From positions 10,850,001-10,914,000 of the forward strand of contig JBHGNT010000011.1 in assembly GCA_043228905.1 (NCBI GenBank): DNA of 64,000 nt, given 5' to 3'. A model generated the notes under the pieces. The model was not told the origin of the DNA and searched no databases. It saw nothing but the letters and a program-made list of their open reading frames with translations. This DNA comes from Azolla caroliniana (lineage: Eukaryota; Plantae; Polypodiophyta). Made by a program: the position numbers and the translations under genes. Positions 4,596 through 64,000 of this stretch are shown piece by piece. Positions within the stretch are counted from its first letter, which is position 1. Each line of letters opens with the position of its first letter.

Positions 4596-5435
4596 TGTCG
4601 TGAAGAATATGCTTCACGATATAAAAATGAACTTAAATATTGTATTTAGTAGTATTTGAGAGACTTGAACCCACACCCTTATATACGAAGTACAATATAC
4701 ATATCACTAGGCTAGGCTATTTATTTTTAGAAATATTGTAAAGAATATTCTTCATGATCTAAGAATGAAGCTAAATATTGTATTGAAGATAAATATTGTA
4801 TTGAGTAAACTTGAACCCTCAACCTTGGATACCAAGCACCAGGTATACACCACTAAGCTAGATTATTTATTTTAAAAGATATATTTCCATCATTGTACTT
4901 ATCCTATATCTATTTTTATACATAAGAGCTCAAATGAGCATGATGGCTATCATGCATCACATGTAATGCATGTGTGCCAAATGGCGATCATGCATTGCAT
5001 GCATGCCATCGTCCCACACATTACCATATGCATGACAATACTTATATAAAGAGGGGCAAGGAAAACAAGAAAGGAATCAAGAGAAAGTGAGAGAAATAAT
5101 ATGATCAAACAAACAAATTAGCTCATTTGGGAAGAGGCTCATGGTTTGAAGTTGGAGTCAAGGGTTCAAATCTACAATTCAACGAAAGAAAAGTCGCATC
5201 TTGTGATCGACATTGTAACTTTGGTAAAATATTGATACATTTTCACTTCTTAAATCATACATTGTCTCTTATCTCTTATCTATGCTCATCTGTCTCTCAC
5301 ACATTACTTCTAACTCTTGTTCTTCCTATCCTTAATCTTTCTAACATTGTTGTACAAGCCTTATAAAATATATAGCCAACTCCTTTTAACCTTAGTCCCT
5401 ACGACTTCGCCGCACGAACCACAACTACCCCGACA
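4596..5435 (+). repeat. Solo LTR of a Trp-primed Gypsy-type family
   Basis: TGTCGTG...CGACA termini like the Gypsy LTRs at 27794/34159/52339; CATGCA cluster and TATA at ~5043; no internal domain follows; flanks (acgt/ccgc) do not form a TSD. Confidence 0.65.
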
Positions 5436-10389: not shown

Positions 10390-10820
10390 TGTCACAACCA
10401 AGAGAGAAGATAGAGTGACAGAAGAAAGGTGTAAAGAGATCACAAGAAGAGAAGAATGAATGTATTAAAGTAGAATGAGTATGGATACAAGATAGGCGAT
10501 GAGAGCTTAAGACTGGTGTTGATTTGAATTGATTTGAGAGTTCATGTATGCCCTTATTTATAGGTTCCCATTGAAAAGCATAGAGATTTCTATAATGTTC
10601 TAGAATTTTCTTCACCTAGAATATTCCAAGATGTTCTTGGATATTCTAGAATGTTCTAAAATGTTCCAGAGTATTTACAATAATCAGTGTATTACAAGAA
10701 ATAGCTTGTATCATCTCATATGATCATGGGCTATCTTAATGGTGGGGTTGCTGTAATTATGTATTACAAGGACTTGGGTTCAAGCCCAGGTGAAGCCATG
10801 ATTCTTATGTATTCATGACA
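10390..10820 (-). repeat. 3' LTR of the chromovirus
   Basis: TGTCATGAAT...GTTGTGACA on the minus strand, immediately after the polypurine tract (10821-10833). Confidence 0.8.
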
Positions 10821-21319: not shown

Positions 21320-21982
21320 TGTTCACCGGCTACGGAGAGTCGGATGGTGCAGACCAGGTATGAACCGGATGAGGAGTACCCGGCTACGGAGAGCCGGATG
21401 GTGCAGACCCGGTATGAACCGGATGAGGAGTACCCGACTACGGAGAGCCGGATGGTGCAGACCCGGTACGAACTGGATGAGGAGTCCCGGCTACGGAGAG
21501 CCGGATGGTGCAGACCCGGTATGAACCAGAGGAAGAGACATATTCGTAAATATGTTTCTGAGAGCCCATCATGGCTATATTTGTAAATAGCCGAAAAGTC
21601 ATATTAGTATAAATATGACTTAGGGCAAACTAACTGTTGTTGTTTTTTTTGTTGGTGCAAGAAGAAGAGAGAGCACGTAACGTTGTACAGAGAGAGAGAG
21701 AGAGAAAGAGGTCGTTGCCTCTGTTGTAACCGCCGCCTGTGGCGAAGATCGTGAGTCCGAGGTCGTTGCCTCCGTGAACTCACTGTTTTGTACATTCATA
21801 CATAGTGACAGTTTGCAGCCTGTGGGCTACCGTGGTTTTTACCCTAGTTTGGGGTTTTCCACGTTAACCTCCTGTGTATCTTCCTCTCCTTTGTGTCGTG
21901 TTTTCGTTTCCTGTTTTCTGTGTATGAAAAGAATCTCGGTTGTGGCCGAGCTTTGTGCATAAGGAGCGTTGAGTTCCCGTCA
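21320..21982 (+). repeat. Solo LTR of the minisatellite-bearing Copia family (relative of 59351-60357), inside G1 gag
   Basis: TGTT...CGTCA termini; ~4 copies of a 51-bp unit (ccggctacggagagccggatggtgcagacccggtatgaaccggatgaggagta); downstream part closely similar to ~59910-60357. Confidence 0.85.
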
Positions 21983-22789
21983 AGCCGCCCTTCCGGATGG
22001 GCCTCTGACCACGTCGTTCAATGCCGACCCCGACTCTGGCTAGATTCGGGTCTCTTCCTTCCTACCGGCCGGCACCAATACCGACTCCTCGAGCCTCCTC
22101 CCCGGGACCGGCCCCGGCCCCGACGAGCTTCCGTCGCTCCAATCGCGCCGTTTGTCGAAACGGCTGCAGACCCGTTTTACCACGACACAGTCTGTCGTGA
22201 GCCCTTCGTCCGTTTCCAATAGGGGACCCACCTTTTCCTTGTAGAGCGCATCCACCGACTTGACAAACAGTAGTACTCGACTAGTTTCGAGCACCGTCCG
22301 GTCCAGCGTTGACAGCCACGCGAACCGTTTTTCGAACTCCTGGAGGAGCACCGACGTGTTCCTCCCCTTTTCGGGGCTTTCCACCCACGCCATGAAGTCC
22401 CGCCTCGACAGCCGAAGCGAGTCATCAAACCCGTACTTCTCGAGGAGCTACAACTCGAACTCCTCCCAAGTCTGGCATCCGGCCTGCACCTCGAGCACCT
22501 CCGCGTGGATGCCCGGCGTCACCACCCGAGGGAATCCGAACAGCCGCCTGTCCACCGATATATCCCTCATGATCATTTCGGCCCGGTAAGCCTCCAAATA
22601 ACTTGTGGCATCTTTCCCTCTGAAACGGCCTATAGAGCTGACAATCGATTCAATGGCTCTGTCGAGGGTACCCGTCCCCTCACGAGCGCTCACCAGCCGG
22701 TCGACGGCCACCACCATTTCCTTTGCTAGCTCCGATCCCCTCATCTTTCGACTCTTTTGCCGCCCCGTTCACGTCGGGTTCACCAAATA

Positions 22790-25602: not shown

Positions 25603-27766
25603 CAATGTGGAGCAAGATGCATGGCTTGGACTAATGTGGATTAAGACATCCTTAATGAAATCATCACAGTGAAGTCGTTGCCAAATAGTATCCACAAGGC
25701 TTGATTCAAGTGGCGTGACATAAACTATTGTTGCTTGTAGGTTTGATGGTCCTAGGAGAATTTGCTTTTGATTGTCGAAGGCCGGGTCTCGAGGACGAAG
25801 TGCGAGATTTGATCGTCGAGACAGAGCATCTACTTTCCCTTATTGTTTCCCGGGGCGGAAAATGATCTTGAAATCAAAACGAGTTAGAAATTGTGCACAT
25901 TGAGCCTGTCTCCTATTTAACACTCGAGCCGTTTGAAAATACATAAGATTTTTATGATCACTATAAATGATGATTTGATGAGGCGATCCTGCCAAGAAAT
26001 GTCACCATTGCTCGAAAGAGTCGACCACAGCTAATAACTCCTTGTCGTGCACCTCGTAGTTTATCTCCACAGTAGTAAATTTTTGCGAGTGAAACACGAC
26101 TGGATGGGACTGCCCGTCCTTGCCTATCCTTGCCTGGTTGTGATAGGATACTCCCCAATGCAAAATCTGACACATCCGACTCAATAGTAAATGGCTTTTC
26201 GGGATCAATATGTGCTAAGATAGGAGCTGATGTGAATGCCTTTTTGAGCTGAATAACGGCCTTGTCCACTTCATTAGTCCAAACAAATGCTTGATCTTTC
26301 TTGGTGAGCTAGGTGAGAGGCTACACAATCTTTGAATAATTCCATATGAATTTGCGATAGAAGTTAGCAAATCCAAGGAAACATTGGACATCTCGAACAG
26401 AACGTGGGGGTTGCCATTTCAATATTGTTTTGACTTTTGCTGGATCCATTAAGATACCCTTGGATGAAATAGTATAACCCAAATTCGACTTGTTCGCTGT
26501 CAAAACTGCACTTCTCAAGTTTGACATACAGACCATACTTTCTTAAGCATTCAAGTACTTTCCGAACATGTATATCATGCTCCTCTTGTGTTTTCGAGTA
26601 AATCAGCAGATCATCTAAATAGATGATGAGAAAGATATCCAGAAAATCTCGAAAAATGTCGTTTGCCATATATTGGAAAACTGCAGGTGCATTTGTGAGC
26701 CCAAAAGGCATGACTGTATACTCAAAATGACCATACCAAATGCAAAATGCAGTTTTCCACTCATCTCCCGGTCGAATTCGAACTAGATTATATGCACCCC
26801 TTAAATCGATTTTTGTAAAATACTTTGCCCCACAAATGCGCTCTAAAAGACTGGAGATTAAAGGTAGAGCATACATATTTCTTATGGTGACTTTATTTAA
26901 TCCCCGATAGTCCACGACCAAACGAAGCGAACTGTCCTTTTTCTTCACAAAAAATATGGGAGCACCGACTGGAGACTTCGAATGTCAAATGAACCCATGT
27001 GCAAGATTTTCCTCGATGTATTCTCGAAGAACCTCAAGCTCAGTTGGTGATAGGTTGTAGATCGGACCCCACGGTGGTTGTTTTCCTGGTTGAAGATCAA
27101 TGGGACAGTCGTACGACCGATGCTTTGGAAGTACACTAGCTTTGCTTTATCAAAGACATCAGCATATTCTTGATATTTTCTGGTAATTTGGATGTTTGAA
27201 TTCCCTTGAGTGGCACTAGAAGGTGTCACTGATACTGCAAATAAGAAAAGTTCCTCCTTTCCTCCCACTAAGGACAATTGTTGCAATGTAATGGTTGAGA
27301 TCTGATGAAAAGGAGATGGTGCAGTGGTAGAACTATGTTCTTTAAGGGAAGAATCTTGGGTTTGATCCTTAGCAATGATGTTGTCTGATGAAGGGCACCA
27401 AATTCCTCGCCTCCTCTAATCGATTCTTGGGTTATGTAGCTCAAACCAAGGATAATTGGATGCTCAGGCCTACGTATTATGTTAAAGGAAACTACACATC
27501 TTAAATCACCTAAGAGTATGTGGATTGGCTCAGACTCTTCGAATATCTTCCCGGAAGCTATGGGACATCCATCAATCACTACTACAGAAACCGGACAAGG
27601 AAGGGTATGCAAGGATATTTGATGTATTTGGGCAAAATCTCTATCCATGAAACAAGAATTGGCACCGGTATCTAAGAGGACTTGGACCTAAAGTTGACAA
27701 CTTGGTGTCCTAACTTGTACTTGGGCTGAGAAGACTCTACTAAAATGCTTGGAAGAAATGCTTGGT
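25603..27766 (-). pseudogene. Chromovirus protease-RT-RNase H segment
   Basis: LLDTGANSCFM; [34 protein letters not shown]; [23 protein letters not shown]. Confidence 0.9.
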
Positions 27767-27793: not shown

Positions 27794-28512
27794 TGTCGTG
27801 CCTTTCGGCTCCGGATCGTTGCATGAGTCGGGTGGGAACCGCCGAGGTTTTGGACTAGGAGGAAGAAAAATACAAATAAGGCTAGTAAAGAATAGGTATA
27901 AAGAGTTATAAGATAAGAATCTCGTGAATCCCACGAGTTTAGTATATTTAGTCAATATTTAGGTAGTAAGAGAGAATTATTTTAGCAAATTCGTGAATCC
28001 CACGAATATTTTAGATTGATTGATCATTATAGAAAAATAATCAACAAAACTACAATGTGCTCCCCATCCTTATTTAGTGATGGGAGAGACTAAGCATAGC
28101 TACATGCTTTTTTCTAATATGTTCATGCACACTAAATGTGCATGTGATGCTTTTCTAATCCTTGCTTTTATTTGCTAAATATAGTGCTCATGCATGCTAG
28201 ATGTGCATGAGTCACTTTTTAGTTGCTTGCGTTTTTCTATAAAATATTCACGCACTCTAAAAATGCATGATTTACCTTTTAATAAAGGTAGGCGCAAATA
28301 AAGCACTTATAGTTATTAAATCTATTTATAGAACACTAAAGATAAGGTAGCATATGGTAAAGTTGAGGTTTGGCTAAGTGGAGGTATAGGGTTTGAATCC
28401 TGCCTTATGCACGTGATAAATATTTTGATATATTATTTATTTATTTATATGTATCTAAAATCGGATATATTATTTTATGGTTTTCACGTAGTGTGTGGAA
28501 TACACTACGACA
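27794..28512 (-). repeat. 3' LTR of G2
   Basis: Direct repeat of 34159-34878. Confidence 0.96.
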
Positions 28513-31500
28513 CTCGCCCCCTCCGAACCCGCACATCCTCCGGTATGTGCCGAAGTTCTCGATTCCTCATATCCGTCTTCACCCAAAGCTTCCTCCGATT
28601 CTCCCCTAATGTCGACTATGAGTTGTAATTCACTTTCTTCGCTTCCCGCATCACCGTGGTCTTCATCCGATTGCTCCTCGTTGTCGGCCTTGGCTTGGAT
28701 CACATAGGGTTTGTCGTCGGTCCGCTTCTTGAAAATCTTCACCCGCTTCCCGGCTATAGGCACTCATAGTATTGTTCCATCCAACTCGGATAGTCGGTAC
28801 GTTCCGTTGTCGAAGACTTTCCGAACCTCGTATGGCCCGAACCACCTTTTCACGAATTTCCGCATCGTTGTATGTTGATGGTCCAAACTACTGTCATAAA
28901 CGATCACCCAATCTCCTTCTTCAATCCTCCTCGGTCGTAGTCGGTGCTTTGTGTCGAACCGGCTTTTGTTCCGAAACCGTGCTTCTTGTTGTCGGCGTAT
29001 TGCTTCCGCTATGTCTGCCGGTCTTCCCTCTAGTTGTCGTATCCGGACCGCTAGTAGTTCTTCCCGGCTCATCTCTTCCTTCCACGGTAGCACTGTCCAT
29101 GTTGCGATCGCGGTTTCCGTCGGCATTACCGGTGCTTGTCCGGTCATGAGTTCTGTCGGCATGTAACCGGTTACAGAGCTATGCGTCGTCCGATCCGCCC
29201 ATAGTGCATACGGAAGCATTTGCGGCCAGTCCTTCACCTTTCCATCGCATGCCTTCGCAAGTGCTTTCACGATCGGACTGTGTCCTCATTCGATTTTCCC
29301 GTTGGCCTCTGGATTGTATGCCGTTGTCAGAGATGACCGAACTCCATGTTTGGCGAAGAATCCCCTAGCTTTGTCCGAGTCAAGTTCTCCCCGGTCCGCA
29401 ATCACTTGCCCTACGCACCCGTACCTGCAAAATACTTCCTCCAAATGAAATTGGCATACCGCGGAACACGTTTTCCTCTGAAGCGCTCGACCTTCTACTT
29501 GATTCGTGAGATCTTCCCGAGCTAATACCAAGTATTTCTTTTGTCCGATCCTAGTCGGCATGGCCACTATGTCGACCATCCACTTGAAGTTGATTGTCGG
29601 TGAGAATGTCGGATGTAACTCATCTCGATGTCGAACCCCGGAGTAGACTTGACATTTCTCGCAGCTTTCCGTGAACTCCGCGACATCTTTGTACATTTTC
29701 TTCCACCAATATTTTTGCTTGATCTTCACAAATGTTGCCCATGTTCCTCGGTGTCCAGCCCAATCGGATTCGTGAAACTCGGACATTATCCGGTTTCGTT
29801 GCTCTTTTGTCCCGACTACTCGAAGTGGTATACAATCCGGTCTTTTCGGCGCCCTCCATATTAATCCGTTTTCCAAGAAGAACTTTTGGACTTGCCTCTT
29901 CTTCCTTCGGATCTCGGCTCTTCTTCCTTTATCGTTTGTTGAGTCCTCGGCCTCTTGTAACATCTTTCCGATCATCAAGCTTTCTCCCTCGTATTCTTCT
30001 TCCCGGAATTCTCGGATTACGTTCACTCGGCATATGTGCTCCGACGCGAAGTAGTCTTCGGAAACTTCTTCATTATCTGATTCGGTTATGTCATCTCCGA
30101 ACCGAGCCCTTGATAACATATCCGCTACCGCGTTGTCCTTCCCCGAGATGTGTCGAACCTCCGGATTAAGCGACTTGACATATGCAACCCACCTTAGCAT
30201 AGCTACATCCGGTATCGTACAACACCGCATCATCCCGAGTATCGGAAGACAATCCGTCTCGATCACCACTTCGGCTCCGATCAAATAATCCCGATCCGAT
30301 TTTACTTTTGACTTGTGCATAGCCACGTTGCCTTTCGTTGAGAACCTTTGCTCCAAATCGGATCGGATACCGCAAACCATCCGAGTCGGCTTGATTGATG
30401 ACCCACCCGATACCGGTTGGACTTGTATCAACCGTTACTATGATCGGTCGGTCGTAGCTCGGCTTCTTAAGTGCTTCCGCCCTCCGAAGTGTCTTCTTCA
30501 ATTTCTTCATGGCTTTGGTGTGTTCCGGTTTCCATTCGAATTTCTTACCTTTCCGCAACAAGTGGTAGAGCAGGTCCACTATATGGGCATAGTGCGGAAT
30601 CCATATGTGATAGAATGCACATACACCGAGAAACCTTCGGACTTTGGATGTTGACTCGCATATTTCCTCCATAGCTTGAATCGCATCGATCTTTGTTGGT
30701 GACGGTCTTCGGCCGTAGGGCCCACATAGATGTCCGACCACCAATATTTCTTCTTGCCCGAATGCCGATTTCTCCCCGGAAAGTGTTAGGTGCACATCTT
30801 CTAGCTTTCGCAACACTTTCTCGCAATCATGAATATGGTCTACCACGAACTTTCGGCATCCCCGATCATCCATAGTCTCATCTTTTTCTTCTACCGCGCA
30901 TCCTTTCATCGGAATGTCATTGAGGAACGGCATCGTTATCTCCGGAATGCAGTCTCGAAGCACCTTGTTCATCGCGTTCATCATATGAGTAACCGAGTTT
31001 GTCGCTCCTTGTGGTAGTGTGCACATTCGGACTAATCCTATCGGTGTTCGCATGGTTGTGATGTCTCGGCTCTCCACGGCTAGTTGGAATTGGTCATACC
31101 CCGAGTATAGGTCTCCGATGGAGTATATCGCACGACCGGCAAAAGCTTCCGCAAATTCGTCCACTATCGGACCGACTCCCGAGTTCCGGATCGTGACCTT
31201 ATTCACCGGTTGCAAGTCTTGGATAAATCGGAGTGACCCATTCTTCTTCGGAACCGTAAACCATCGATTTGAGTACGGAGCAGTTGATGGCTCTAGAATC
31301 CCCATCGCCACCTTCTCCTTGAGCAAGTCAATGACTTTCGGAATATGCGCTCGTGGCACCAGAATTGGCTTCAGGTTCCACGGTACATGGTCAATCGTGA
31401 AAAACACCATCGGCTCCACTATTCTTGGATCGACGCACCCTATCTCCCTTGATGTAAATGCAAACGCTTTGCCGTGTTGTTCCAACATCTCGCGAAACCG

Positions 31501-32083
31501 TTCTTCTTCTTTTTGTAATAGGAACCCACCTCCACCGATCCGAAGTTTCTTCCGGGTCTCATCAGTGAAGGCATATCCGATATCCACAGACTTCCGAAGT
31601 GTCGGATCTCCCGAGACTTCTTTCCTCTTTTGTTCGCTATCGGCGGGTAGTGGTCCCGCGGCCGGTTTCACCTTCTTCTCCACGGCCTTGTATTTCGTAC
31701 TTACCATTGCTTCTTCTTTGCGGAGCGTATCCGGCTCCATTTTCGCAATGATCTCGTACATCTCGACTGATTCCACTGGGACTACCCGGTTCCCTTGGCT
31801 TTTATCTTTCACAAGCTCTTCAAGTCGTTGTAGCGTGCTCCCATAGAACACTTCTTCGACTATCCCCACGATTTCTTCATCTTCTTTTATTATTGATGCC
31901 GACCACAACTTATCCTCCACTTGTCGGTATCCTTCCTTCAATCCTCCGGTTACGGTCGCGTACGTAGATGCCCCATCCGGACCGATTCGTACATGTTTTG
32001 CTCCGAGAGTTTTCTTCTTGTGTGGGGTATCAGGGCTTCTCGGACTATCACTTCCCCACTCCGCAACAGTCCGCTTTAAAAAT
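28470..32083 (-). pseudogene. G2 pol (RT-RNase H-integrase) in the -1 frame, few lesions
   Basis: ORFs 30166-31941, 29286-30431, 28764-29270 and 28470-28763; the frame is open from the slippery site into 30166-31941. Confidence 0.9.
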
Positions 32084-32085
32084 CC
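32022..32085 (-). promoter_or_regulatory. Putative -1 frameshift signal (GGAUUUU + H-type pseudoknot) of G2
   Basis: GGATTTT-TAA-AG-CGGACTGT..GTGGGG..ATAGTCCG-N13-CCCCAC. Confidence 0.8.
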
Positions 32086-34118
32086 ATTCTCACTTGGGAC
32101 AAGAGTTCCCTCTTGTTCCTTTTGTGATTTGCCGGCACCGTTAGGAATTGGACGGATTTCCCACCGTTTTGACTCCGAATTCGCGCAAAAGCCGCACCGC
32201 TATCGAGCACCTTCGTCTCCATCCGTGATGCCATGATAAAGGGTTGGCCGAGGATGACGGAATGTGAAACCTCATCTTGCACGAAGAAATTTTGGTCGAT
32301 CTCGACATCCCCGATCTTCACCGTCACATCCGGACAAGCCGCAAATAGATCTTTCGTTGCTTTGGTGGCCGCCCGAATCTTCCATCCATGGTTGGTGTTA
32401 ATAGGCCACTTCCCCTTCCGGTAGAACTCCTTGGACATCAAGTTGATCTCTGATCCGTGATCAATCAATGCTAGCACGGGTTCTTTGATGTTGCCGATTC
32501 GGACCGGAGTCTTCGTAGTCGCGCGTGCCCAATGTGGCCTTGTATAGTGGGAGTTCGGAATTTCGTCCTCCACTTCGGTATCGTTCATTAAAACGGTGTT
32601 CGCATTCACCCTTGGAGCATTTTCCTCCGTACTTTGTCTTTTTCGCTTCACGAGATCCACGAGAAGATCGTGGAACTCCTTCTTTGCTATTCCGAGTAGC
32701 TCCCGAAGCGAGAAATCTACCTGGCTATCCAAGATCCTTTCCTTGAACACTCTTTTCAAGTCGGTTTGTTGTTCTATGTCCGAGGCGAGCTTGAATGCCG
32801 GAGTCGCCTTTTCTTTTCCCTTACCTCCGGAGTTCCAACTTTCCGGTATCTTCAATGGCCCGCCCGCATCCTCCGTGCGTTGTCGTTTCTCGTCCACATA
32901 CACCTTATGCAATTGACACAGGGCGTATACGCTATTCTTGTCGACAGGGCACTCCCATCCTGTAGCTTCTCGGACGCCTTCCGTGGTGCTTCGGATCTCG
33001 TTGGAGTCGGTTTTCTCGGTGTTTTCTAGAACTTCCGGCCAAAAAGATGTCTTTGCTCTCGATGACTCCCCGACACATATTCCCGCGGTTGTCGCACGGT
33101 TGCTTCTTGCCGCCAATTCCTCCTCAAGCACCTTCTTCATGCCGCCTTTCCGGAAGTTCGGTCAGAGTGGCTTCCGAGAGTCCATCGAATGAATCCGGTT
33201 TCCCTCGTAGTAGATGAGATCCCGCCGTAGCGCCTCCTTATGCTCGTCGCAATCCCTCCGATCGTGTTCGGCGCTATCGCACCATATGCACCGTCGGTCC
33301 GTATACTTGGAGCTTGTGGGGCGATCATCCGACTTCTTCACCATCGCGATCTTCAGATTCTCCATCTCCTTCAATAGTTGCTCCACCGTAGATGCATCAA
33401 TGCCCTTCTCGGTTGTAGTCTCCCGAGCCCTCGGTTGATGGTCTTCCAATCCGGTTCTCGGTTTCGGAATCGGTTCCGAAACCCTCTTTTCCTCGTTGGC
33501 AAGCCATTGCCCCCTCTTCGTGTATCGCGCGACGATATCCCGCACGCTTTCCCATGTTTCGGTGAGGCCACTCTCCGTGGTCGTGTCCTCCAAGAGCACT
33601 CCGAGATCTTTCCGGTCCCGGACGTCCACGGCTCGCAAGAACATGATCACCTTGTCCGGTACGAGGATAGCTTGATCTCTCGCGGACAACCTCCCGAACC
33701 GGCTTTCGAATGCCGAAAACACATCAACGACCTTCAATCCCTTGTCCGGCGTCTCCACCCAATCTTCGAATCCCCTTCGCGTCGCCTTGGAGGAATCCTC
33801 GATGGCGAACGTCCTCTTTAGCTCTTCTTCAAATGCCTCCCATGTCGGATTTTGTTGTCGTAGCCCATGGATGCTTGCTTGAAGCCCGTCGGTCGCCACC
33901 CAGTTGAAGGATGTCACTTGCAGTCCTTCCGATATTCCGCAACGTAGCATCTCCGCCTTGTAGTCCCGAAGATACCGCGACACGTCTTTCCCGTTGAATT
34001 GCCCGTTTCGTTGCACGAGCCGCTCCACTATTGCCGCTATCTCCGACGTCGCGCGTTGTTCTTGTAGCATGTGCTCGAACATCATCATCATGTTGCTAGC
34101 CTCCGGTTGATTTTCCAT
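32076..34118 (-). pseudogene. G2 gag-protease ORF1 (single in-frame TGA at 33162)
   Basis: ORFs 33162-34118 and 32076-33140 share one frame; CCHC knuckle CIWCDSAEHDRRDC; protease ALIDHGSEINLM...VILGQPF. Confidence 0.9.
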
Positions 34119-34158
34119 CTCCTTGCCACCCAGTGTTTCACGTCGGGTTCACCAACTA

Positions 34159-34878
34159 TGTCGTGCCTTTCGGCTCCGGATCGTTGCGTGAGTCGGGTGG
34201 GAACCGCCGAGGTTTTGGACTAGGAGGAAGAAAAATACAAATAAGGCTAGTAAAGAATAGGTATAAAGAGTTATAAGATAAGAATCTCGTGAATCCCACG
34301 AGTTTAGTATATTTAGTTAATATTTAGGTAGTAAGAGAGAATTATTTTAGCAAATTCGTGAATCCCACGAATATTTTAGATTGATTGATCATTATAGAAA
34401 AATAATCAACAAAACTACAATGTGCTCCCCATCCTTATTTAGTGATGGGAGAGACTAAGCATAGCTACATGCTTTTTTCTAATATGTTCATGCACACTAA
34501 ATGTGCATGTGATGCTTTTCTAATCCTTGCTTTTATTTGCTAAATATAGTGCTCATGCACGCTAGATGTGCATGAGTCACTTTTTAGTTGCTTGCGTTTT
34601 TCTATAAAATATTCACGCACTCTAAAAATGCATGATTTACCTTTTAATAAAGGTAGGCGCAAATAAAGCACTTATAGCTATTAAATCTATTTGTAGAACA
34701 CTAGAGATAAGGTAGCATAATGGTAAAGTTGAGGTTTGGTTACGTGGAGGTATAGGGTTTGAATCTTGCCTTATGCACGTGATAAATATTTTGATATATT
34801 ATTTATTTATTTATATGTATCTAAATTCGGATATATTATTTTATGGTTTTCACGTAGTGTGTGGAATACACTACGACA
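34159..34878 (-). repeat. 5' LTR of G2
   Basis: Adjacent to the Trp PBS; followed by TSD ccgt. Confidence 0.96.
34707..34774 (+). other. tRNA-like A-box/B-box module within the G2 LTR (second copy at 28342-28408)
   Basis: ATAAGG-TAGCATAATGG-N32-GGTTTGAATC(C/T)-TG-CCTTAT: A box, B box, tRNA spacing and a closing stem. Confidence 0.55.
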
Positions 34879-42379: not shown

Positions 42380-42539
42380 CTACTCTAGCGGTGGGAAAAA
42401 TGGGAAGCTTCCTGTAGTTTAGATATTGTGTGGAAAAGATCTAAATTTTACTTCATATTATGAAACATGATGTATGGAAACAACTCATGAATTGACAAAC
42501 TCCCTTAAATTTGTCTGGATTTAATTGGTGGTAGGAAAC

Positions 42540-44156
42540 ATGGATCTTGCGACGAGTGATGATCATGCAATGATGAAGATAATAACGACGGGGATTCAAC
42601 ATGTGTTAATAGAGAGTACAATATTAGCTCCATGGCAATGGATGGAGGTAATATTGTGGATTATTGTGGCATTAATAGGGGTCTTTTGTATGCGGGCAAT
42701 GGCACAGAAGAAACGGCCAAAAAATCCTGTGGACTGGCCCTTGGTAGGGATGTTGCCAGGATTAATCGCCAACATGCACAATTTCTATGATTGGTTTTCA
42801 GAGGTATTGATAGACAATGGGGGGAGCTTCCAATTTTGGGGACCTTGGTTCACAAAATTTAATTATTTTACCACAATTGATCCAAGGAATGTGGAGCATG
42901 TTTTACGACTTAAATTTTCAAACTACCCGAAAGGCCCGGATTTCCATTCCATATTCCACGATCTACTCGGGAATGGAATCTTCAATGCCGATGACGAACT
43001 ATGGAGGATGCAAAGAAAAGCTTCGAGCTTACAACTCAAATCACAAGAGTGCAAGAACTTTACAAGTGCCGCGATCATAAAGTCCGTGAACAACAAATTA
43101 CTACCAATCCTAAACCATTTGTCTACGGCTCGAGAACCCGTGGATTTGCAAGATTTGATGTTGCGTTTCACATTCGATACAATGTGTATGGTGGGCTTTG
43201 GGGTGGATACGGGCTACCTTTCACCGGAGCTCCCTTTCATTCCCTTTGCTTCGGCCTTCGAGACGGCACTTGATTGCACGACCCTCCGATTTTTTATCCC
43301 CTCGTCTTGGTGGCGCGCCTTTAGGTTCCTTCGAGTCGGAAAGGAGTCTCACATGCCATCATCCCTCGTAGTTATCGATCGCTTCATCAACCATGTCATT
43401 ACTACTCGTCGCCTTGAACTCCAAGTGAACAACACCACCAACAACCCAAGTTCCAAAGCCGACTTATTGACTTGCTTCATGAAACTTGGAGTCGATTCAT
43501 GTGATGACAAATTCCTCAAAGACATATCGATCAACTTCTTGCTTGCCGGTCGTGACACCTCTGCCCTTGCTCTTTCTTGGTTCTTTTGGTTGGTCTCTAC
43601 CCATCCACATGTGGAAGAGAAACTTGTCAATGAAGTGAATCAAGTCATGGGTTCTTCGGATAAATTCTCACTTACTCCTGAAAAGCTCAACCAAATGACC
43701 TACCTCCATGCTGCATTATCGGAATCCCTTCGCCTTTACCCATCAGTGCCCATCGAAGTAAAACATATACTAGAGGACGATATCTTACCCGATGGGAACC
43801 ATCTCAAAAAGAATGATAGACTCATATTCAACACCTATGGCATGGGTCGAATGGAAAGCATTTGGGGTTCCGATTCAAGATCTTTTCGCCCCGAACGTTG
43901 GTTCTCCGATGATGGCACCTCATGCGTATCACATATTTCGCCGTTCCAATACCCCGCATTCAATGCAGGTCCTAGGATATGTCTAGGGAAAGACATGGCC
44001 TATTTCCTAATGAAGACAGTTGCATCGACGATGCTATACAATTTTAAAATCTCCGTGGTGCCTGGACACAAAGTTGTTCCTAAACTTTCCATCACTTTAT
44101 ATATGAAACATGGTCTGCTCGTCACTTTGGAACCGCGAAAACCCTTGGAGGCATAA
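42540..44156 (+). CDS. Intronless cytochrome P450, CYP86 clan (CYP86/94/704-like, probable fatty-acid hydroxylase)
   Basis: Uninterrupted ORF (first ATG 42540): N-terminal TM helix, WPLVGMLP hinge, NYPKG and LLGNGIFNADDELW (CYP86-clan typical), I-helix LAGRDTS, K-helix ESLRLYPSVP, FRPERW, heme motif FNAGPRICLG. Confidence 0.95.
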   Translation: MDLATSDDHAMMKIITTGIQHVLIESTILAPWQWMEVILWIIVALIGVFCMRAMAQKKRPKNPVDWPLVGMLPGLIANMHNFYDWFSEVLIDNGGSFQFWGPWFTKFNYFTTIDPRNVEHVLRLKFSNYPKGPDFHSIFHDLLGNGIFNADDELWRMQRKASSLQLKSQECKNFTSAAIIKSVNNKLLPILNHLSTAREPVDLQDLMLRFTFDTMCMVGFGVDTGYLSPELPFIPFASAFETALDCTTLRFFIPSSWWRAFRFLRVGKESHMPSSLVVIDRFINHVITTRRLELQVNNTTNNPSSKADLLTCFMKLGVDSCDDKFLKDISINFLLAGRDTSALALSWFFWLVSTHPHVEEKLVNEVNQVMGSSDKFSLTPEKLNQMTYLHAALSESLRLYPSVPIEVKHILEDDILPDGNHLKKNDRLIFNTYGMGRMESIWGSDSRSFRPERWFSDDGTSCVSHISPFQYPAFNAGPRICLGKDMAYFLMKTVASTMLYNFKISVVPGHKVVPKLSITLYMKHGLLVTLEPRKPLEA

Positions 44157-51959: not shown

Positions 51960-52338
51960 TGTCGTGTGGTTCTTCACACACGATATGAAAAATAATGAAA
52001 TAATTATTCTAGATTAGCTTAATGGTTTGGTATGAAAAGATGGACATGTTCAAGAGCTTCCAAACACATTTTACTACATATGAAACGGACAACTAAGTAT
52101 CAAGTTAGGTGAGTATGAAGTTTGAGAAGATGGGGGGAACAGAACTGCAAGATATCCCACATAGATAGGACAACGTCGGATCCAACAGTATATAAAAAGA
52201 CCTGGAACCCATTACTTCATATGTGTGTTTGGAGAATAGAATGGTAAGGGTGATTTAGGTTGAACTGTCCAAACATACGGATGTGGACGAATTGCCAAGA
52301 TGTTTGAGTGTGGATGAATTGCCGTTGGTCAATCACGG
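51960..52338 (+). repeat. Truncated Gypsy LTR (related family) into which G3 inserted
   Basis: Starts TGTCGTGTGG exactly where the Copia RNase H is cut; similar to the start of 4596-5435 and to parts of the G3 LTR. Confidence 0.55.
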
Positions 52339-53326
52339 TGTCATGAAGATTTTCAGTGATAGTGTGAAACTTATAAGGAACATACGAAATCGAGTGTGGT
52401 TCTTCTTGCGAAATATAAAACAATAATAGTAAAGATACTATTTTAAATAAGTTTAATATCTCGGTACAAAAAGATGGAGGTCTTGAAGAGGTTTTGAATG
52501 TACTTTACTATGTAGGAAATGGACATCTAAGTGTCAAGTAATGTGGGTATGAAGTTTGCAAAGAAGAAGAGGAAAATATGTGATATCCCGCATAGACAGG
52601 ACAAATAAAGATCCCACCATATATAAGGCAGAGCAAAAGCTATTATCTTTGTGTTTATGTGTGGAGTATAGAATGGTTAAGTTGTATGACTTAACAAATG
52701 GAAGTAGCCAAATGCATATAACTATGTGTTTTGGAGAAATCCGGCGACGACGACCGACGGAGCCGGCGAAACGATGACTGGACGGAGAAATGCCTTGTAA
52801 AAGTACATTAATAATAAACATATATAGGTCTATAGACTTACCACTAGGCTATGACATTTCCTTAAAAATATTTTTGTTATCATTATAGTTTTACATGTAA
52901 ATTCTTATATTAGAGCTTGATTGAGTGACATGTGATGCATGAGCGCCAAATGGCAAACATGCATCACATGCATTCCATGCATTGTATGCATGTCTTGTAC
53001 TCGCCTGCATCATATGCATGGGAGCATCTATAAAAGGATGGATGAAAAAGATCAAAAGTATGCTATGTATGATTCAAGAATTTAAGAAGAAGAAAATTCG
53101 TTCTCCAGTTGATGGTGTATCTTGTTTCTTAAATCGAAAGTCAAGGGTCCAATCTTAAGCTCTCTCTCAATCTAAAATTAAGTGTTTTATCTTATCTCAA
53201 TCTCTCTCTCTTCCAATCTCTCTTAATTCCTTTCTTGCTAAAGCTAGTGCAACTTCGAATCCTTCCGGTCCAGAACCCTGGCGGTTCCGCCTCGCAATCC
53301 GCACGTAGTGACGGATCTTCACGACA
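52339..53326 (+). repeat. 5' LTR of G3
   Basis: Matches 58951-59350 and 63795-64000; ends CACGACA before the PBS. Confidence 0.9.
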
Positions 53327-58852: not shown

Positions 58853-59409
58853 ATGAAGATGTGGAAGAATATGATTGATAACCATCGCTGAAATCTTGCA
58901 CTCTCTCTTCTTGGCACGTACCAGAGGACGTGCGGTTTGGTGGGGGTGGATGTTGTGAAGATTTTCGGCGATAGTGTGAAACTTGTAAGGAACATACAAA
59001 ATCGAGTGTGATTCTTCTCGCGAAATATAAAACAATAATAGTAAAGATACTATTTTAAATAAGTTTAATATCTTGGTACAAAAAGATGGAGGTCTTGAAG
59101 AGGTTCTAAATGTACTTTACTACGTAGGAAACAGACATCTAAGTGTCAAGTTATCTGAGTATGAAGTTTGCAAAGAAGAAGAGGAAAATATGTGATATCC
59201 CACATCGACAGGACAAATAAAGATCCCACCATATATAAGGCAGAGCAAAAGCTATTACCTTTGTGTTTATGTGTGGAGTATAGAATGGTTAAGTTGTATG
59301 ACTTAACAAATGGATGTAGGCAAATGCATATAACTATGTGTTTTGGATGATGTTGGGAGACAGGTCCCTCCGGATGGGAAGGGAGAAGTACAATGCCGAT
59401 GAACAAACT

Positions 59410-59895
59410 CGGATGAGGAGTACCCGGCTACGAAGAGCCGGATGATACAGACCCGATGAAGACCGGATGAGGAGCACCCGGCTACGGAGAGCCGGATGAT
59501 ACAGACCCGGTGAGGACCGGATGAGGAGCACCCGGCTACGGAGAGCCGGATGATACAGACCCGGTGAAGACCGGATGAGGAGCACCCGACTACGGAGAGC
59601 CGGATGGTACAGACCCGGTGAAGACCGGATGAGGAGCACCCGGCTACGGAGAGCCGGATGGTACAGACCCGGTGAAGACCGGATGAGGAGCACCCGGCTA
59701 CGGAGAGCCGAATGATACAGACCCGGTGAAGACCGGATGAGGAGCACCCGGCTACGAAGAGCCGGATGATACAGACCCGGTGAAGACTGGATGAGGAGCA
59801 CCCGGCTATGGAGAGCCGGATGGTACAGACCCGGTGAAGACCGGATGAGAAGCACCCGGCTACGGAGATCCGGATGATGCAGGTCCGGTGAGGAG
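59410..59895 (+). repeat. 54-bp minisatellite, 9 units, in the 5' LTR of Copia F
   Basis: cggatgaggagcacccggctacggagagccggatg(a/g)tacagacccggtgaagac recurs every 54 bp from 59410 to 59842. Confidence 0.95.
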
Positions 59896-62800
59896 TGCTC
59901 TCCGGATGAAGAGACATATTCGTAAATATGTTTCTGAAAGTCCATCGTGGCTATATTTGTAAATAGCCGAAAAGTCATATTAGTATAAATATGACTTAGG
60001 GCAAACTTTTGTGGTTGTTGTTGTCATTGTTGTCTGCGCGAGATCGGAGCGCGTAACTGTGTACAGAGAGAGTGAGAGAGAGGAAGAGGTCGTTGCCTCA
60101 GTTGTAACCGCCGCATGTGGCGAAGATCGTGAGCACGAGGTCGTTGCCTCCGTGAACTCACTGTTGTACATTCTAACATAGTGATAGTTTGCAGCCTGTG
60201 GGCTGCCGTGGTTTTTCCCTCAGTTTGGGTTTTCCACGTAAACATCTTGTGTACTCTTCTCCTCTTTGTGTCGTGCATTTATTTCCCGTTTTCTGCGTAT
60301 GATTCTAAGCTCGGTTGTGGCCGAGCGCTGCGCATAAGGAACAATTAGTTCACGTCAAGTGGTATCAGAGCAAAACGACACAGAAAATGGACGAATCGTT
60401 GGGCGGCATGTTCAAGCTCACCGGCTCCAACTATTCAGTGTGGAAGTCGAAGATGAGGGATATGCTCGTGGTTAAAGATCTTTGGTTACCGGTTCAGTTC
60501 GGGGACAAGAGACCGGACAAGATCGACGCCACAATATGGGAGGTGATGCACATGAAGACAACGGAGTACATACGGTGCTTCATCGACATGAGCCTATACA
60601 ACAACTTCAATGAAGAGAGCAAGGCTCATGAGCTCTGGGAGAAGATCGGCATAATGTTTCAAAACAAAAATGTTGTTAACCAGGTTTCGGTATTCCGGAA
60701 GCTAGTAAGACTCCGGTACCAAGATGGCTCCAGCATGGCAGAGCACATGAATGCCCTCCAGGGGCTGATCCACCAGGCAACTTCATTGGAAGTACCTCTC
60801 GCCGATGAGGTACTAGCACTACTCCTGCTCGGTTCCCTCCCGGATAGCTAGGAGACGTTGGTTGTCACTTTGGGCAATGCCGGGCCGGAAGGAAAGCGGT
60901 TATCCCTAGCAAGAGTAAAGTCGAGCTTGCTAGATGAGGAGGCGCGTCGGAAAGACAAAGATACGATCTCCGGCCCCAAAGCGCTCCTTACCGAATCGGA
61001 ACGCGGAAGACATAGAAACCGTAGTCCCCAGAACCGGGAGAAGTCGGGGACACGGTCAAAGTCAAGGGGAAGACCCACTTGCTTCTATTGCGGCAAGCCG
61101 GGACACTTCCAGAAGAACTGTCGGCATTTCCGAAAGGATAAGGAGACCAATGGTACTGATTCGAAGCGGACCCCGGACCGGAACTGTAAAGACCGGAGGG
61201 GGCCGTACCGGAAGGGAACGACGGCAATCGCGGCAAGTGAAGAGGAGTTGATGCTCATCACCGAGGAGAGTGAGATAAACCTTGCCGGCGACAAGATGAC
61301 CTGGGTGGTAGACTCCTGAGTGTCGTTCCACCTTACCCCGGACCGGAAATGCTTCTCATCCTACTAAGCCGGTTATCACGGTTGTGTCCGGATGGGGAAT
61401 GAAGGTACATGCTGAATTGTCGGCATAGGAGACGTGTGGCTGTCAACACCAACTGGATGCAAGTTGTTGCTGAAGGATGTTTGACACGTTCCGGAAGTTT
61501 GTCTGAACTTGATATCAGCCGGTCGGCTAGATGATGAAGGCTACACGGGTAGCATCCGAAACGGTGTCATGAAGTTCAGCAAGGGGAGCCTGATTGTGGC
61601 TCGGGCTCGGAAGGTCAACACTCTGTACCTGATGAATGCCCGGTTATGTCTGGAGGAAGTGAACGTGGCATCCGACACTGCCGGTGAGCTATGGCACAAG
61701 AGGTTGTGTCACATGAGCGAGAAGGGGATGAAGAGGCTTGCAGAAGACAACCTCATTCCAGTGAAGAACGTGCACTTGGAGAAGTGCACTTATTGTCTGG
61801 CCGGTAAGCAAAACCGGACCTCCTTCCGACCAAGGCCACCGATGAGACGCAATGCACCACTGATCAATGGTACCACAAGACGCAGGCCGATCACTGCGTG
61901 TTTGTGAAGAAGTTCGAAGGAGGCGACTTCCTGATACTCCTTCTGTACGTGGACGACCTGTTGATCGTCGGACGGGACCAAGTCAAAATACGGCTGCTGA
62001 AGAAGGCTCTCAACCGGACCTTCTCAATGAAAGACTTGGGTCCGGCAAGACAGATGCTGGGGATGCATATTATCCGGAACCGGTCAACGAAGCAATTATG
62101 GCTGTCACAGGAAAAGTACGTGACAAAGGCGCTTCACCGGTTCAACATGTCAGATGCGAAACCGGTCGGATCGACACTTCCGGAAAACTGCAGGTTATCC
62201 GATAAGCAAAGCCCGAAGACGAAAGTAGAGAAGGCGGATATGATGAAGATTCCATATGCCTCTGCCGTTGGGAGCTTGATGTACGCAATGGTGTGTACCC
62301 GACCGGATATAGGATACGCAATCGGAGTGGTGTCGGAGTGGTGAGCCGGTTTATGAGCAATCCCGGCAAGGAGCACTGGAACGCGGTCAAATGGATACTC
62401 TGATATTTGAAGGGCACTTCAAATATGTGTCTCCGATTCGGCTCCAGAAAACCTCAACTGGACGGTTTCACCGATTCGGACATGTCGGCTGATGTGGATA
62501 CCAGCCGGTCTACATCCGGGTATGTAATGACATATGTAGGGGGAGCTGTTTCGTGGCAGTCGAGTCTGCAGAAGACGGTTGCATTGTCAACCACGGAGGC
62601 GGAGTACATGGCGGTTGTGGAAGCCGGCAAGGAAATATTATGGATGAAGGACTTCATCGGAGAGCTCGGTATCCGGCAAGATGAATACCGGCTCTATTGC
62701 GATAGTCAAAGTGCCATCCACCTTGCTAAGAATGCGGCCTACCATTCCCGGACGAAGCATATCCAACGAAGGTATCATTGGATCCGGGAGAGAATAGATG

Positions 62801-63003
62801 ACCAGGAGTTCGCGCTGACGAAGATCCACACGACCGAGAACGGGTAAGATATGCTGACCAAAGTGTTGATACCCGACAAGCTGGATGCATGCCGGAAGAG
62901 GATCGGACTGGTAAGACACCCCATGCCGGAGTGAAGGGGGGGTTTGTTGGGAGACAGGTCCCTCCGGATGGGAAGGGAGAAGTACAGTGCCGATGAACAA
63001 ACT

Positions 63004-63327
63004 CGGATGAGGAGTACCCGGCTACGGAGAGCTAGATGGTACAGACCCGGTGAAGACCGGATGAGGAGCACCCGGCTACGGAGAGCCGGATGGTACAGAC
63101 CCGGTGAAGACCGGATGAGGAGCACCCTGCTACGGAGAGCCGGATGGTACAGACCCGGTGAAGACCGGATGAGGAGTACCTGGCTACGGAGAGCCGGATG
63201 ATACAGACCCGATGAAGACCGAATGAGGAGCACCCGGTTACGTAGAGCCGGATGGTACAGACCCGGTGAAGACCGGATGAGGAGTACCCGACTACGGAGA
63301 TTCGGATGATGCAGGCCCGGTGAGGAG
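63004..63327 (+). repeat. 54-bp minisatellite, 6 units, in the 3' LTR of Copia F
   Basis: Same unit every 54 bp from 63004 to 63274. Confidence 0.95.
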
Positions 63328-64000
63328 CGCTCTCCGGATGAAGAGACATATTCGTAAATATGTTTCTGAAAGTCCATCGTGGCTATATTTGTAAATAGCC
63401 GAAAAGTCATATTAGTATAAATATGACTTAGGGCAAACTTTTGTGGTTGTTGTTGTCATTGTTGTCTGCGCGAGATCGGAGCGCGTAACTGTGTACAGAG
63501 AGAGTGAGAGAGAGGAAGAGGTCGTTGCCTCAGTTGTAACCGCCGCCTGTAGCGAAGATCGTGAGCACGAGGTCGTTGCCTCCGTGAACTCACTGTTGTA
63601 CATTCTAACATAGTGATAGTTTGCAGCCTGTGGGCTGCCGTGGTTTTTCCCTCAGTTTGGGTTTTCCACGTAAACATCCTGTGTACTCTTCTCCTCTTTA
63701 TGTCGTGCATTTATTTCCCGTTTTCTGCGTATGATTCTAAGCTCGGTTGTGGCCGAGCGCTGCACATAAGGAACGATTAGTTCACGTCAGATGAATCCGA
63801 TGACCGAGATCCAACATCCGGCATCATCCGGTGACGGCGACCGACGGAGCCGGCGAAACGATGACCAGACGGAGAAACGCCTTGTAAAAATACATTAATA
63901 ATAAACATATATATATATATGTATGTATGTATGTATATTCAAAAGGAGTGCAAGTGAAAACTTGATCCTTGTACCTCCACGTTGAGAGTCTATAGATTTA

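Follow-up and report, generated by a model that had tools for sequence, protein, structure and literature searches.

An antisense tRNA-type A box/B box unit, probably constrained at the DNA level, in U3 of several Trp-primed Gypsy LTR families from Azolla caroliniana and related loci

Why do retrotransposons with a predicted Pol II promoter of their own carry, antisense in their LTRs, the A and B boxes of a tRNA-type Pol III promoter? The question is raised by a 64,000-nucleotide stretch of Azolla caroliniana DNA (here referred to as the window), a nest of LTR retrotransposons surrounding a single cytochrome P450 gene. The closest named relatives of this gene are fern proteins (50-59% identity; long Brassica records at 39% or less were set aside). 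Scans of viral contigs gave no match. The retrotransposon named G2 (Table 1) has the coding order gag (DUF4100)-RT-RH-INT with broken frames, and no chromodomain was found in the G2-type element. An identical 17-mer primer-binding site (PBS) adjoins the element G1 and weakly matches the Rfam RSV_PBS model, a type of site that we take to be primed by tRNA-Trp. RT identity to G2 is 68% for G1 and 58% for the third element, G3; the named RT relatives are Riccia proteins (55-67%) and Adiantum proteins, whose records bear no clade labels. The target site duplication (TSD) of G1 is CCGG, and the ends of a further family, X, are unlike (ACGT, CCGC). A Copia element with 54-nt tandem repeats in its LTR (59351-63789, TSD GATGA) is inserted in the G3 3' LTR, and a lone LTR with 54-nt tandem repeats lies at 21326-21984.

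Table 1. Coordinates of the features discussed (window numbering; strand + is the strand as shown)
Feature	Position	Strand	Remarks
G2 element	27794-34878	-	Trp-primed non-chromovirus Gypsy, Phygy-like, 7085 bp, TSD CCGT (4 bp)
G2 5' LTR	34159-34878	-	720 bp, from sequence
G2 3' LTR	27794-28512	-	from sequence
G2 PBS	34138-34154	-	tRNA-Trp type, from sequence
G2 unit (5' LTR), A box	34713-34723	+	9/9 non-N consensus positions
G2 unit, 32-nt spacer	34724-34755	+	AGG conserved (tRNA positions 44-46); polymorphism highest here within the unit
G2 unit, B box	34756-34766	+	T at tRNA position 56 in this copy
First TTTT run 3' of the B box	34789-34792	+	predicted Pol III terminator, putative transcript of about 85 nt
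CATG-rich block between G2 unit and TATA-like site	34454-34688	-	predicted Pol II promoter, putative function
G2 TATA-like site	34435-34442	-	putative, placed by eye against the related L009 LTR
G2 unit, 3' LTR copy	28342-28408	+	A box one base short, from sequence
G3 5' LTR (52339-53326, +), A box	52841-52851	-	B-box side deleted here
G3 3' LTR, spacer, degenerate B box (63968-63958) and T run	63941-64000	-	A box past the window end
Antisense unit X1	4807-4860	-	family X; solitary LTR of Phygy type (4596-5435, +) within a Copia remnant
Antisense unit X2	4661-4714	-	tandem duplicate of X1
Antisense unit of Tf2/Tcn1-like element	10732-10787	+	34-nt spacing, cloverleaf-like fold; likely in 3' LTR (10390-10820, -)
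Sense unit, LTR X	5119-5173	+	33-nt spacing, downstream of TATA-like site, from matrix scan
Sense unit, G3 5' LTR	53101-53156	+	decayed, spacing about 33 nt; E 0.79, weak by itself but backed by alignment of homologues
P450 frame	42525-44156	+	intronless, CYP86 clan type; sole host gene seen within the window

A first-pass annotation, made from the letters alone, had described a tRNA-like promoter module in both G2 LTRs and an equivalent one in G3. All four box strings given for G2 and G3 are exact, and the A reported as missing from the G2 3' LTR A box (position 34719 in the numbering of the 5' LTR) is indeed 1 of the 11 mismatches that the LTR pair shows over 720 places; four of these 11 fall inside the 68-nt unit. 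For G3, the boxes are present but split, with the A box in the 5' LTR and the B-box side in the 3' LTR, and an intact unit of G3 type was seen only in the relatives L023, L034, and L052. The ATAAGG and CCTTAT flanks that had been counted with the module did not stand: they are out of tRNA acceptor register (4/7 pairs) and absent from other families.

The window was scanned with a generic A/B-box matrix at a spacing of 30-35 nt, built from the consensus in the first-pass annotation with B-box position 9 set to Y. Four matches of at least 20 bits were obtained, whereas 60 local dinucleotide shuffles averaged 0.08 and never exceeded 1; all four lie antisense inside LTRs, namely, those of G2, family X (X1 and X2), and the Tf2/Tcn1-like element. 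The earlier list of units was right for G2 and had missed the other three. No A/B-box unit was found in the G1 LTRs. Rejected candidates were an A/B-like match inside a pol frame (27317-27369), a sense A box at 52015 without a B box, and a B-like 11-mer in the G1 U5, which is a common U5 motif without an A box. A tandem duplication of about 140 nt in family X, common to the window copy and its relatives L054 and L058, has led to two antisense units; the family has a sense unit besides. Both relatives have a Trp PBS. The Tf2/Tcn1-like unit, a single copy in an element of a different lineage, is possibly an independent capture. Near the start of that LTR, the stretch 10725-10806 (+) contains a perfect B box, and its predicted fold has four arms but does not reach significance (z -1.7).

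For variation within the G2 family, contigs of three DNA runs (three studies), one of which may come from the source of the window itself, were compared with 161 nt of the G2 LTR (34640-34800), which were covered by 622, 499, and 464 contigs. Two further runs, presumed to be RNA, yielded one contig (outside the unit) and none, respectively, numbers that carry no information about expression. In the DNA runs, the unit is covered as deeply as its flanks or more so, and neither an indel nor a joint is listed in any of the three; the unit therefore belongs to the G2 family as a regular part of its LTR and is not a copy-specific insertion. The full variant list of the stretch comprises 25 rows (at least 2%, three DNA runs; rows close to the stretch ends are lost). 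No variant of at least 2% was found in the A box in the three runs, and the A-box deletion, being absent at this level, is likely private to the G2 copy in the window. The spacer has nine polymorphic places in 32 nt (one private change left out), and the B box has two, both toward the consensus: C at the last position makes up 23-25% of the depth, and C at position 56 makes up 38, 29, and 37% in the three runs, with T at 62-71%. The B box is canonical in about a third of the G2 family and non-consensus in about two thirds. T at position 56 would weaken the box, so the larger G2 subfamily has likely spread with a weakened B box. The expectation that the boxes are better conserved than their neighbours falls short of significance within G2, where 2/22 box positions are polymorphic vs 9/32 in the spacer (p 0.08) and 18/75 outside the boxes (p 0.11; Fisher tests, not significant). 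A second host family, visible as loose ends at 34745 in 12, 8, and 6 contigs, has another 5' spacer half but an unchanged A box, and its spacing also adds up to 32.

Relatives were collected by a scan for an LTR end plus Trp PBS, which yielded at least 122 metagenome loci, 80 of them with wide flanks. Their LTRs are 67-86% alike to the window families, and most of the loci look like elements of a related species. Among the 64 loci with at least 500 nt upstream, nine hold antisense matches of at least 18 bits, i.e., eight LTR units, all with spacing 32, and one tRNA-Arg gene; sense matches occur in three. When spacings of 20-70 were allowed (103 of the at least 122 loci, with at least 250 nt upstream), 9 of 11 antisense matches, from seven loci, have spacing 32, against 0.04 at this spacing in shuffles. 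The shuffles give 4.3 antisense matches in all and a maximum of 10, which the observed total of 11 barely exceeds, and the signal is the pile-up at 32. The unit is thus commoner than in shuffled DNA, both in the window and, at this spacing, in its relatives. The 91 element interiors show no spacing-32 peak; their lone antisense match at that spacing is a 3' LTR unit of a further family, L062. This element is apparently non-coding and Trp-primed, with an interior of about 2.4 kb. Its antisense unit is near-perfect and has a spacer like that of the sense-type units in other families. The matches in L037 and L019 represent genuine tRNA genes or copies lying outside LTRs, and the unit set excludes them: L037 has a tRNA-Arg(CCG) gene (1151-1223) about 200 nt from the 5' LTR of an element, and L019 has, close to another element, tandem tRNA-Met-like copies (2244-2315 and 2614-2685) within a repeat of about 365 nt. 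Two of 64 loci beside tRNA genes seems high, in a set of contigs that is biased.

In the window and metagenome relatives together, 15 units of nine LTR groups were aligned. The main unit lies within U3, antisense, in 15/15, and its spacing is 32 nt in 15/15; the unit is real and multi-family. The A box is located 160-200 nt upstream of the TATA-like site in X, L001, L066, L072, L034, and L054, and about 260-275 nt upstream in L009 and G2 (by eye in G2), with a CATG-rich block in between. Such blocks are palindromic in the window (34454-34688, 52880-53020, 4886-5035) and are taken by us to resemble RY elements; promoter-block identity among families X, G3, and L066 is 70-77%. An antisense unit is present in 5 of the 22 loci with a recognisable LTR start, and it is lacking from the G+C-rich G1-type LTRs and from several A+T-rich ones, including the G2 relatives L002 and L060. 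Unit-bearing rows are scattered on the gag tree, where six such rows need six changes; with 57 rows of partly non-overlapping fragments, and five unit-bearing loci without usable gag, this tree is too weak for an order of gains and losses. The patchy distribution fits an old capture with losses, or an exchange of U3 pieces between families. In L067, a gag 76-79% identical to that of G2 is joined to an LTR of a different, unit-less type, which suggests LTR exchange between families.

An unguided alignment of the 15 units is gap-free between the boxes, its sole gap lying in the B-box tail of L072; flank indels of about 0.065 per mismatch lead to an expected 1-2 per deep pair, so that gap-free spacing alone is modest evidence. 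The near-invariant columns correspond to what we take to be tRNA positions U8, A14, G18, G19, A21, G53, T54, U55, and A58, together with AGG at 44-46. Between the nine groups, identity is 0.80 in the defined box columns, 0.48 in the spacer, and 0.38 and 0.33 in the flanks, with L021, whose boxes are broken, left out of the comparison; the conservation of the boxes above their neighbours thus holds between families, but the value is inflated because the units were first found by box score. Of 14 defined letters, 10-14 are kept in the 15 units (12 in the window G2 copy, with T at 56), and at least 12 are kept in 8/9 groups, for which equal-rate decay on a star tree predicts 7% each. A box-blind search with the promoter block returned eight non-query homologues, i.e., four with an intact unit, one with a 1-nt A-box deletion, and three with a box lost or broken. 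Between X1 and its L066-type counterpart, the promoter block is 72% alike, the spacers 44%, and the boxes 81%.

The rival explanation that survives best is a neutral relic, in which one or a few tRNA or SINE heads entered ancestral LTRs and have been decaying since, the likeness of the boxes coming from common tRNA sources and from the search key. It is possible, though we judge it rather unlikely. The nine groups collapse to about four deep spacer classes, 24-56% alike, and these could derive from different tRNA sources that share boxes anyway. The scatter on the weak gag tree, the losses in L021, L065, and the G3 5' LTR, the T56 majority in G2, and a leftover T-arm pairing of 2-5/5 all point to decay, and "not a few" Repbase LTRs contain tRNA-like pieces according to the available part of Kojima (2024, PMC10886601). 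Less easily reconciled with a relic are the constancy of side, orientation, and TATA distance in the six loci with the A box 160-200 nt upstream, the boxes of X1 and L066 that outlast the spacer at one homologous site, and the family X sense unit, whose boxes differ between members at 2-3/14 places vs 13-14/33 in the spacer. Moreover, no free-standing SINE-like copy was found among profile matches with E <0.01 in 268 kb, mostly element DNA. Simple-repeat tails follow some units (G3, L023). The anticodon register reads CTT in L023 and L034 and differs in the other units.

All 15 units have A and B boxes of the type-2 Pol III consensus at a distance within the 31-93 nt of such promoters. As RNA genes they look different. 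ARAGORN and Rfam called no tRNA gene in the window, and units in 16 and 33 relative loci gave no tRNA call (covariance model, ARAGORN), with the control tRNA-Arg of L037 at 59 bits; relaxed ARAGORN runs with introns gave noise. Acceptor pairing is 0-4/7, the consensus fold of the 15 units has three pairs (-0.15 kcal/mol), and the folding of single G2 units does not surpass that of shuffled sequence (z -1.2 and 0.4). A run of four T within 60 nt occurs in 10/15 units, and the terminator lies at +5 to +33 or is absent. With neither cloverleaf, tRNA call, nor fixed terminator, the constraint looks like that of a DNA promoter and not of an RNA product.

A second rival is that a short antisense Pol III RNA, which the first-pass annotation had raised alongside a TFIIIC insulator, is the functional product; it would base-pair with the U3 part of the element transcript or enter small-RNA pathways, so tuning the element's own silencing. 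Retention of the A box and of the spacing is what transcription needs, and foamy viruses express Pol III RNAs from U3 (PMC3993851, part available). CAA near the predicted start in 6/15 units and the T run in 10/15 come near the rates of plant tRNA genes (36-45% and 67-72%, respectively, in the accessible part of PMC11700998), and the upstream A+T content is 66-84%, in LTRs that are A+T-rich anyway. However, neither a conserved fold nor conserved sequence outside the boxes is seen, the terminator is variable, and an element would presumably suffer from RNA antisense to itself; this reading gains little from the data and is improbable. It is highly improbable that the unit is a landing signal for Pol III-targeting retroelements, or a site for another plant factor that merely resembles tRNA boxes. 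True tRNA genes or copies do lie within 1.5 kb of an LTR in 2/64 loci (L037, L019), but none of the 15 units shows an insertion immediately upstream, the Copia element in the G3 3' LTR lies about 170 nt beyond the 3' end of the unit there, and both boxes, AGG, and spacing fit tRNA geometry.

The reading preferred here, to which we give about an even chance, is that a tRNA gene or the head of a tRNA-derived SINE was captured and has been retained antisense in U3, where it would be a TFIIIC/TFIIIB site oriented away from the Pol II promoter; that the unit is constrained at the DNA level is probable. TFIIIC would bind the B box and the AGG upstream of it, and the A box would direct TFIIIB to the flank nearer the Pol II promoter, at a distance of about 120-240 bp from the TATA-like site. 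If Pol III transcribes the unit, the RNA (about 70-100 nt) would be made in the direction leading away from the Pol II promoter. Occupancy, and not RNA, would provide the benefit, either as a nucleosome-free edge or as a barrier to silencing or read-in from the flank. tRNA genes can act as chromatin barriers. Since many sister families replicate without the unit, it would be an optional aid to the element. In yeast, as described in the part of PMC11724288 available to us, TFIIIC contacts the B box as well as a G on its upstream side, no particular spacer sequence is required, the two boxes are most often 32 bp apart, and the A box serves for TFIIIB placement rather than TFIIIC binding; the letters kept in the LTR units appear to be those that TFIIIC reads on DNA. 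Counting against function are the absence from sister families, the 3/8 box-independent homologues with a box lost or broken, the majority T56 in G2, the four differences between the G2 LTRs inside the unit, the non-significant comparison within G2, and the fact that units were first picked out by their boxes. G1, too, has no unit, though its RT is nearer to that of G2 than the RT of G3 is.

Weaker sense-strand units with 33-nt spacing occur in families X, G3, and L066, about 70 nt 3' of the TATA-like site; no sense unit was found in the G2 LTR, and a strong score is reached only by the L058 copy (26 bits). From this arrangement a wider, and doubtful, model can be drawn up, in which the Pol II promoter is bracketed by outward tRNA-type promoters (one or two antisense in U3 and a weaker sense one past the TATA-like site), TFIIIC/TFIIIB occupancy would constitute a portable anti-silencing barrier, and thousands of Pol III-factor sites would have been spread genome-wide.

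Several known systems resemble the unit in part, and the first-pass description of a candidate undescribed system was too strong, since tRNA-type Pol III promoters in LTRs have been described in Helenus TRIMs and foamy viruses. In Helenus/TRIMp3, as far as the available text of Kojima (2024, PMC10886601) goes, tRNA-like sequence is present in both LTRs, boxes A and B are conserved without a working tRNA, and the proposed origin is a SINE insertion into an LTR; one plant family, in Selaginella, is given. Unlike G2, with its 7085 bp and its RT, RH, and INT, Helenus elements are non-autonomous (311-1263 bp), and in two LTRs of the supplement the unit is sense and forms the element's own promoter, whereas here it is antisense and accompanied by a separate predicted Pol II-type promoter. 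The autonomous Helenus partners are expected, in the same text, to use Pol II promoters without tRNA-like sequence. In Cassandra TRIMs of plants, ferns among them, the LTRs likewise hold an internal Pol III promoter, but this is a 5S-derived type-1 promoter (boxes A and C) of non-autonomous elements with a Met-type PBS and drives their own transcript (accessible part of PMC7215508). The Pol III miRNA cassettes of foamy-virus LTRs are A/B-box units in U3 of an autonomous retroelement and dispensable in some conditions; their product is a structured pri-miRNA with shown expression (PMC3993851, in part), whereas no hairpin is conserved among the present units. Extra-TFIIIC (ETC) sites have TFIIIC-type boxes that are proposed to act on chromatin and not via RNA, but TFIIIB and Pol III are absent from them and the B box is what they depend on (PMC11724288, portion available), while the LTR units have retained the A box and the spacing as well.

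G2 itself is likened by traits to the Phygy clade, for which Neumann (2019, PMC6317226) gives a 4-bp NCGN TSD, a tRNA-Trp PBS (81%), and an almost entirely coding interior; G2 shares the TSD type, the PBS, and the compact coding interior. That clade was described from Physcomitrella with elements of 7.7-10 kb, against 7.1 kb in G2, and the available part of the source mentions no LTR unit. What stands of the novelty claimed earlier is the antisense placement in an autonomous plant Gypsy LTR, of which the literature searched gave no account; Repbase entries or subscription papers may mention one, and, given the remark on Repbase by Kojima (PMC10886601, available part), such LTR cases may be known but undescribed.

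Even as a relic, the units would give rise to numerous false tRNA-like sites in fern genomes. Bound boxes, on the other hand, would mean that a coding retrotransposon uses the tRNA machinery for guarding its promoter and not for copying itself, an anti-silencing route that needs no protein. As families with, without, and with broken units are found in one genome, alongside C56 and T56 subfamilies of G2, the question of a plant TFIIIC barrier is testable here with natural controls.
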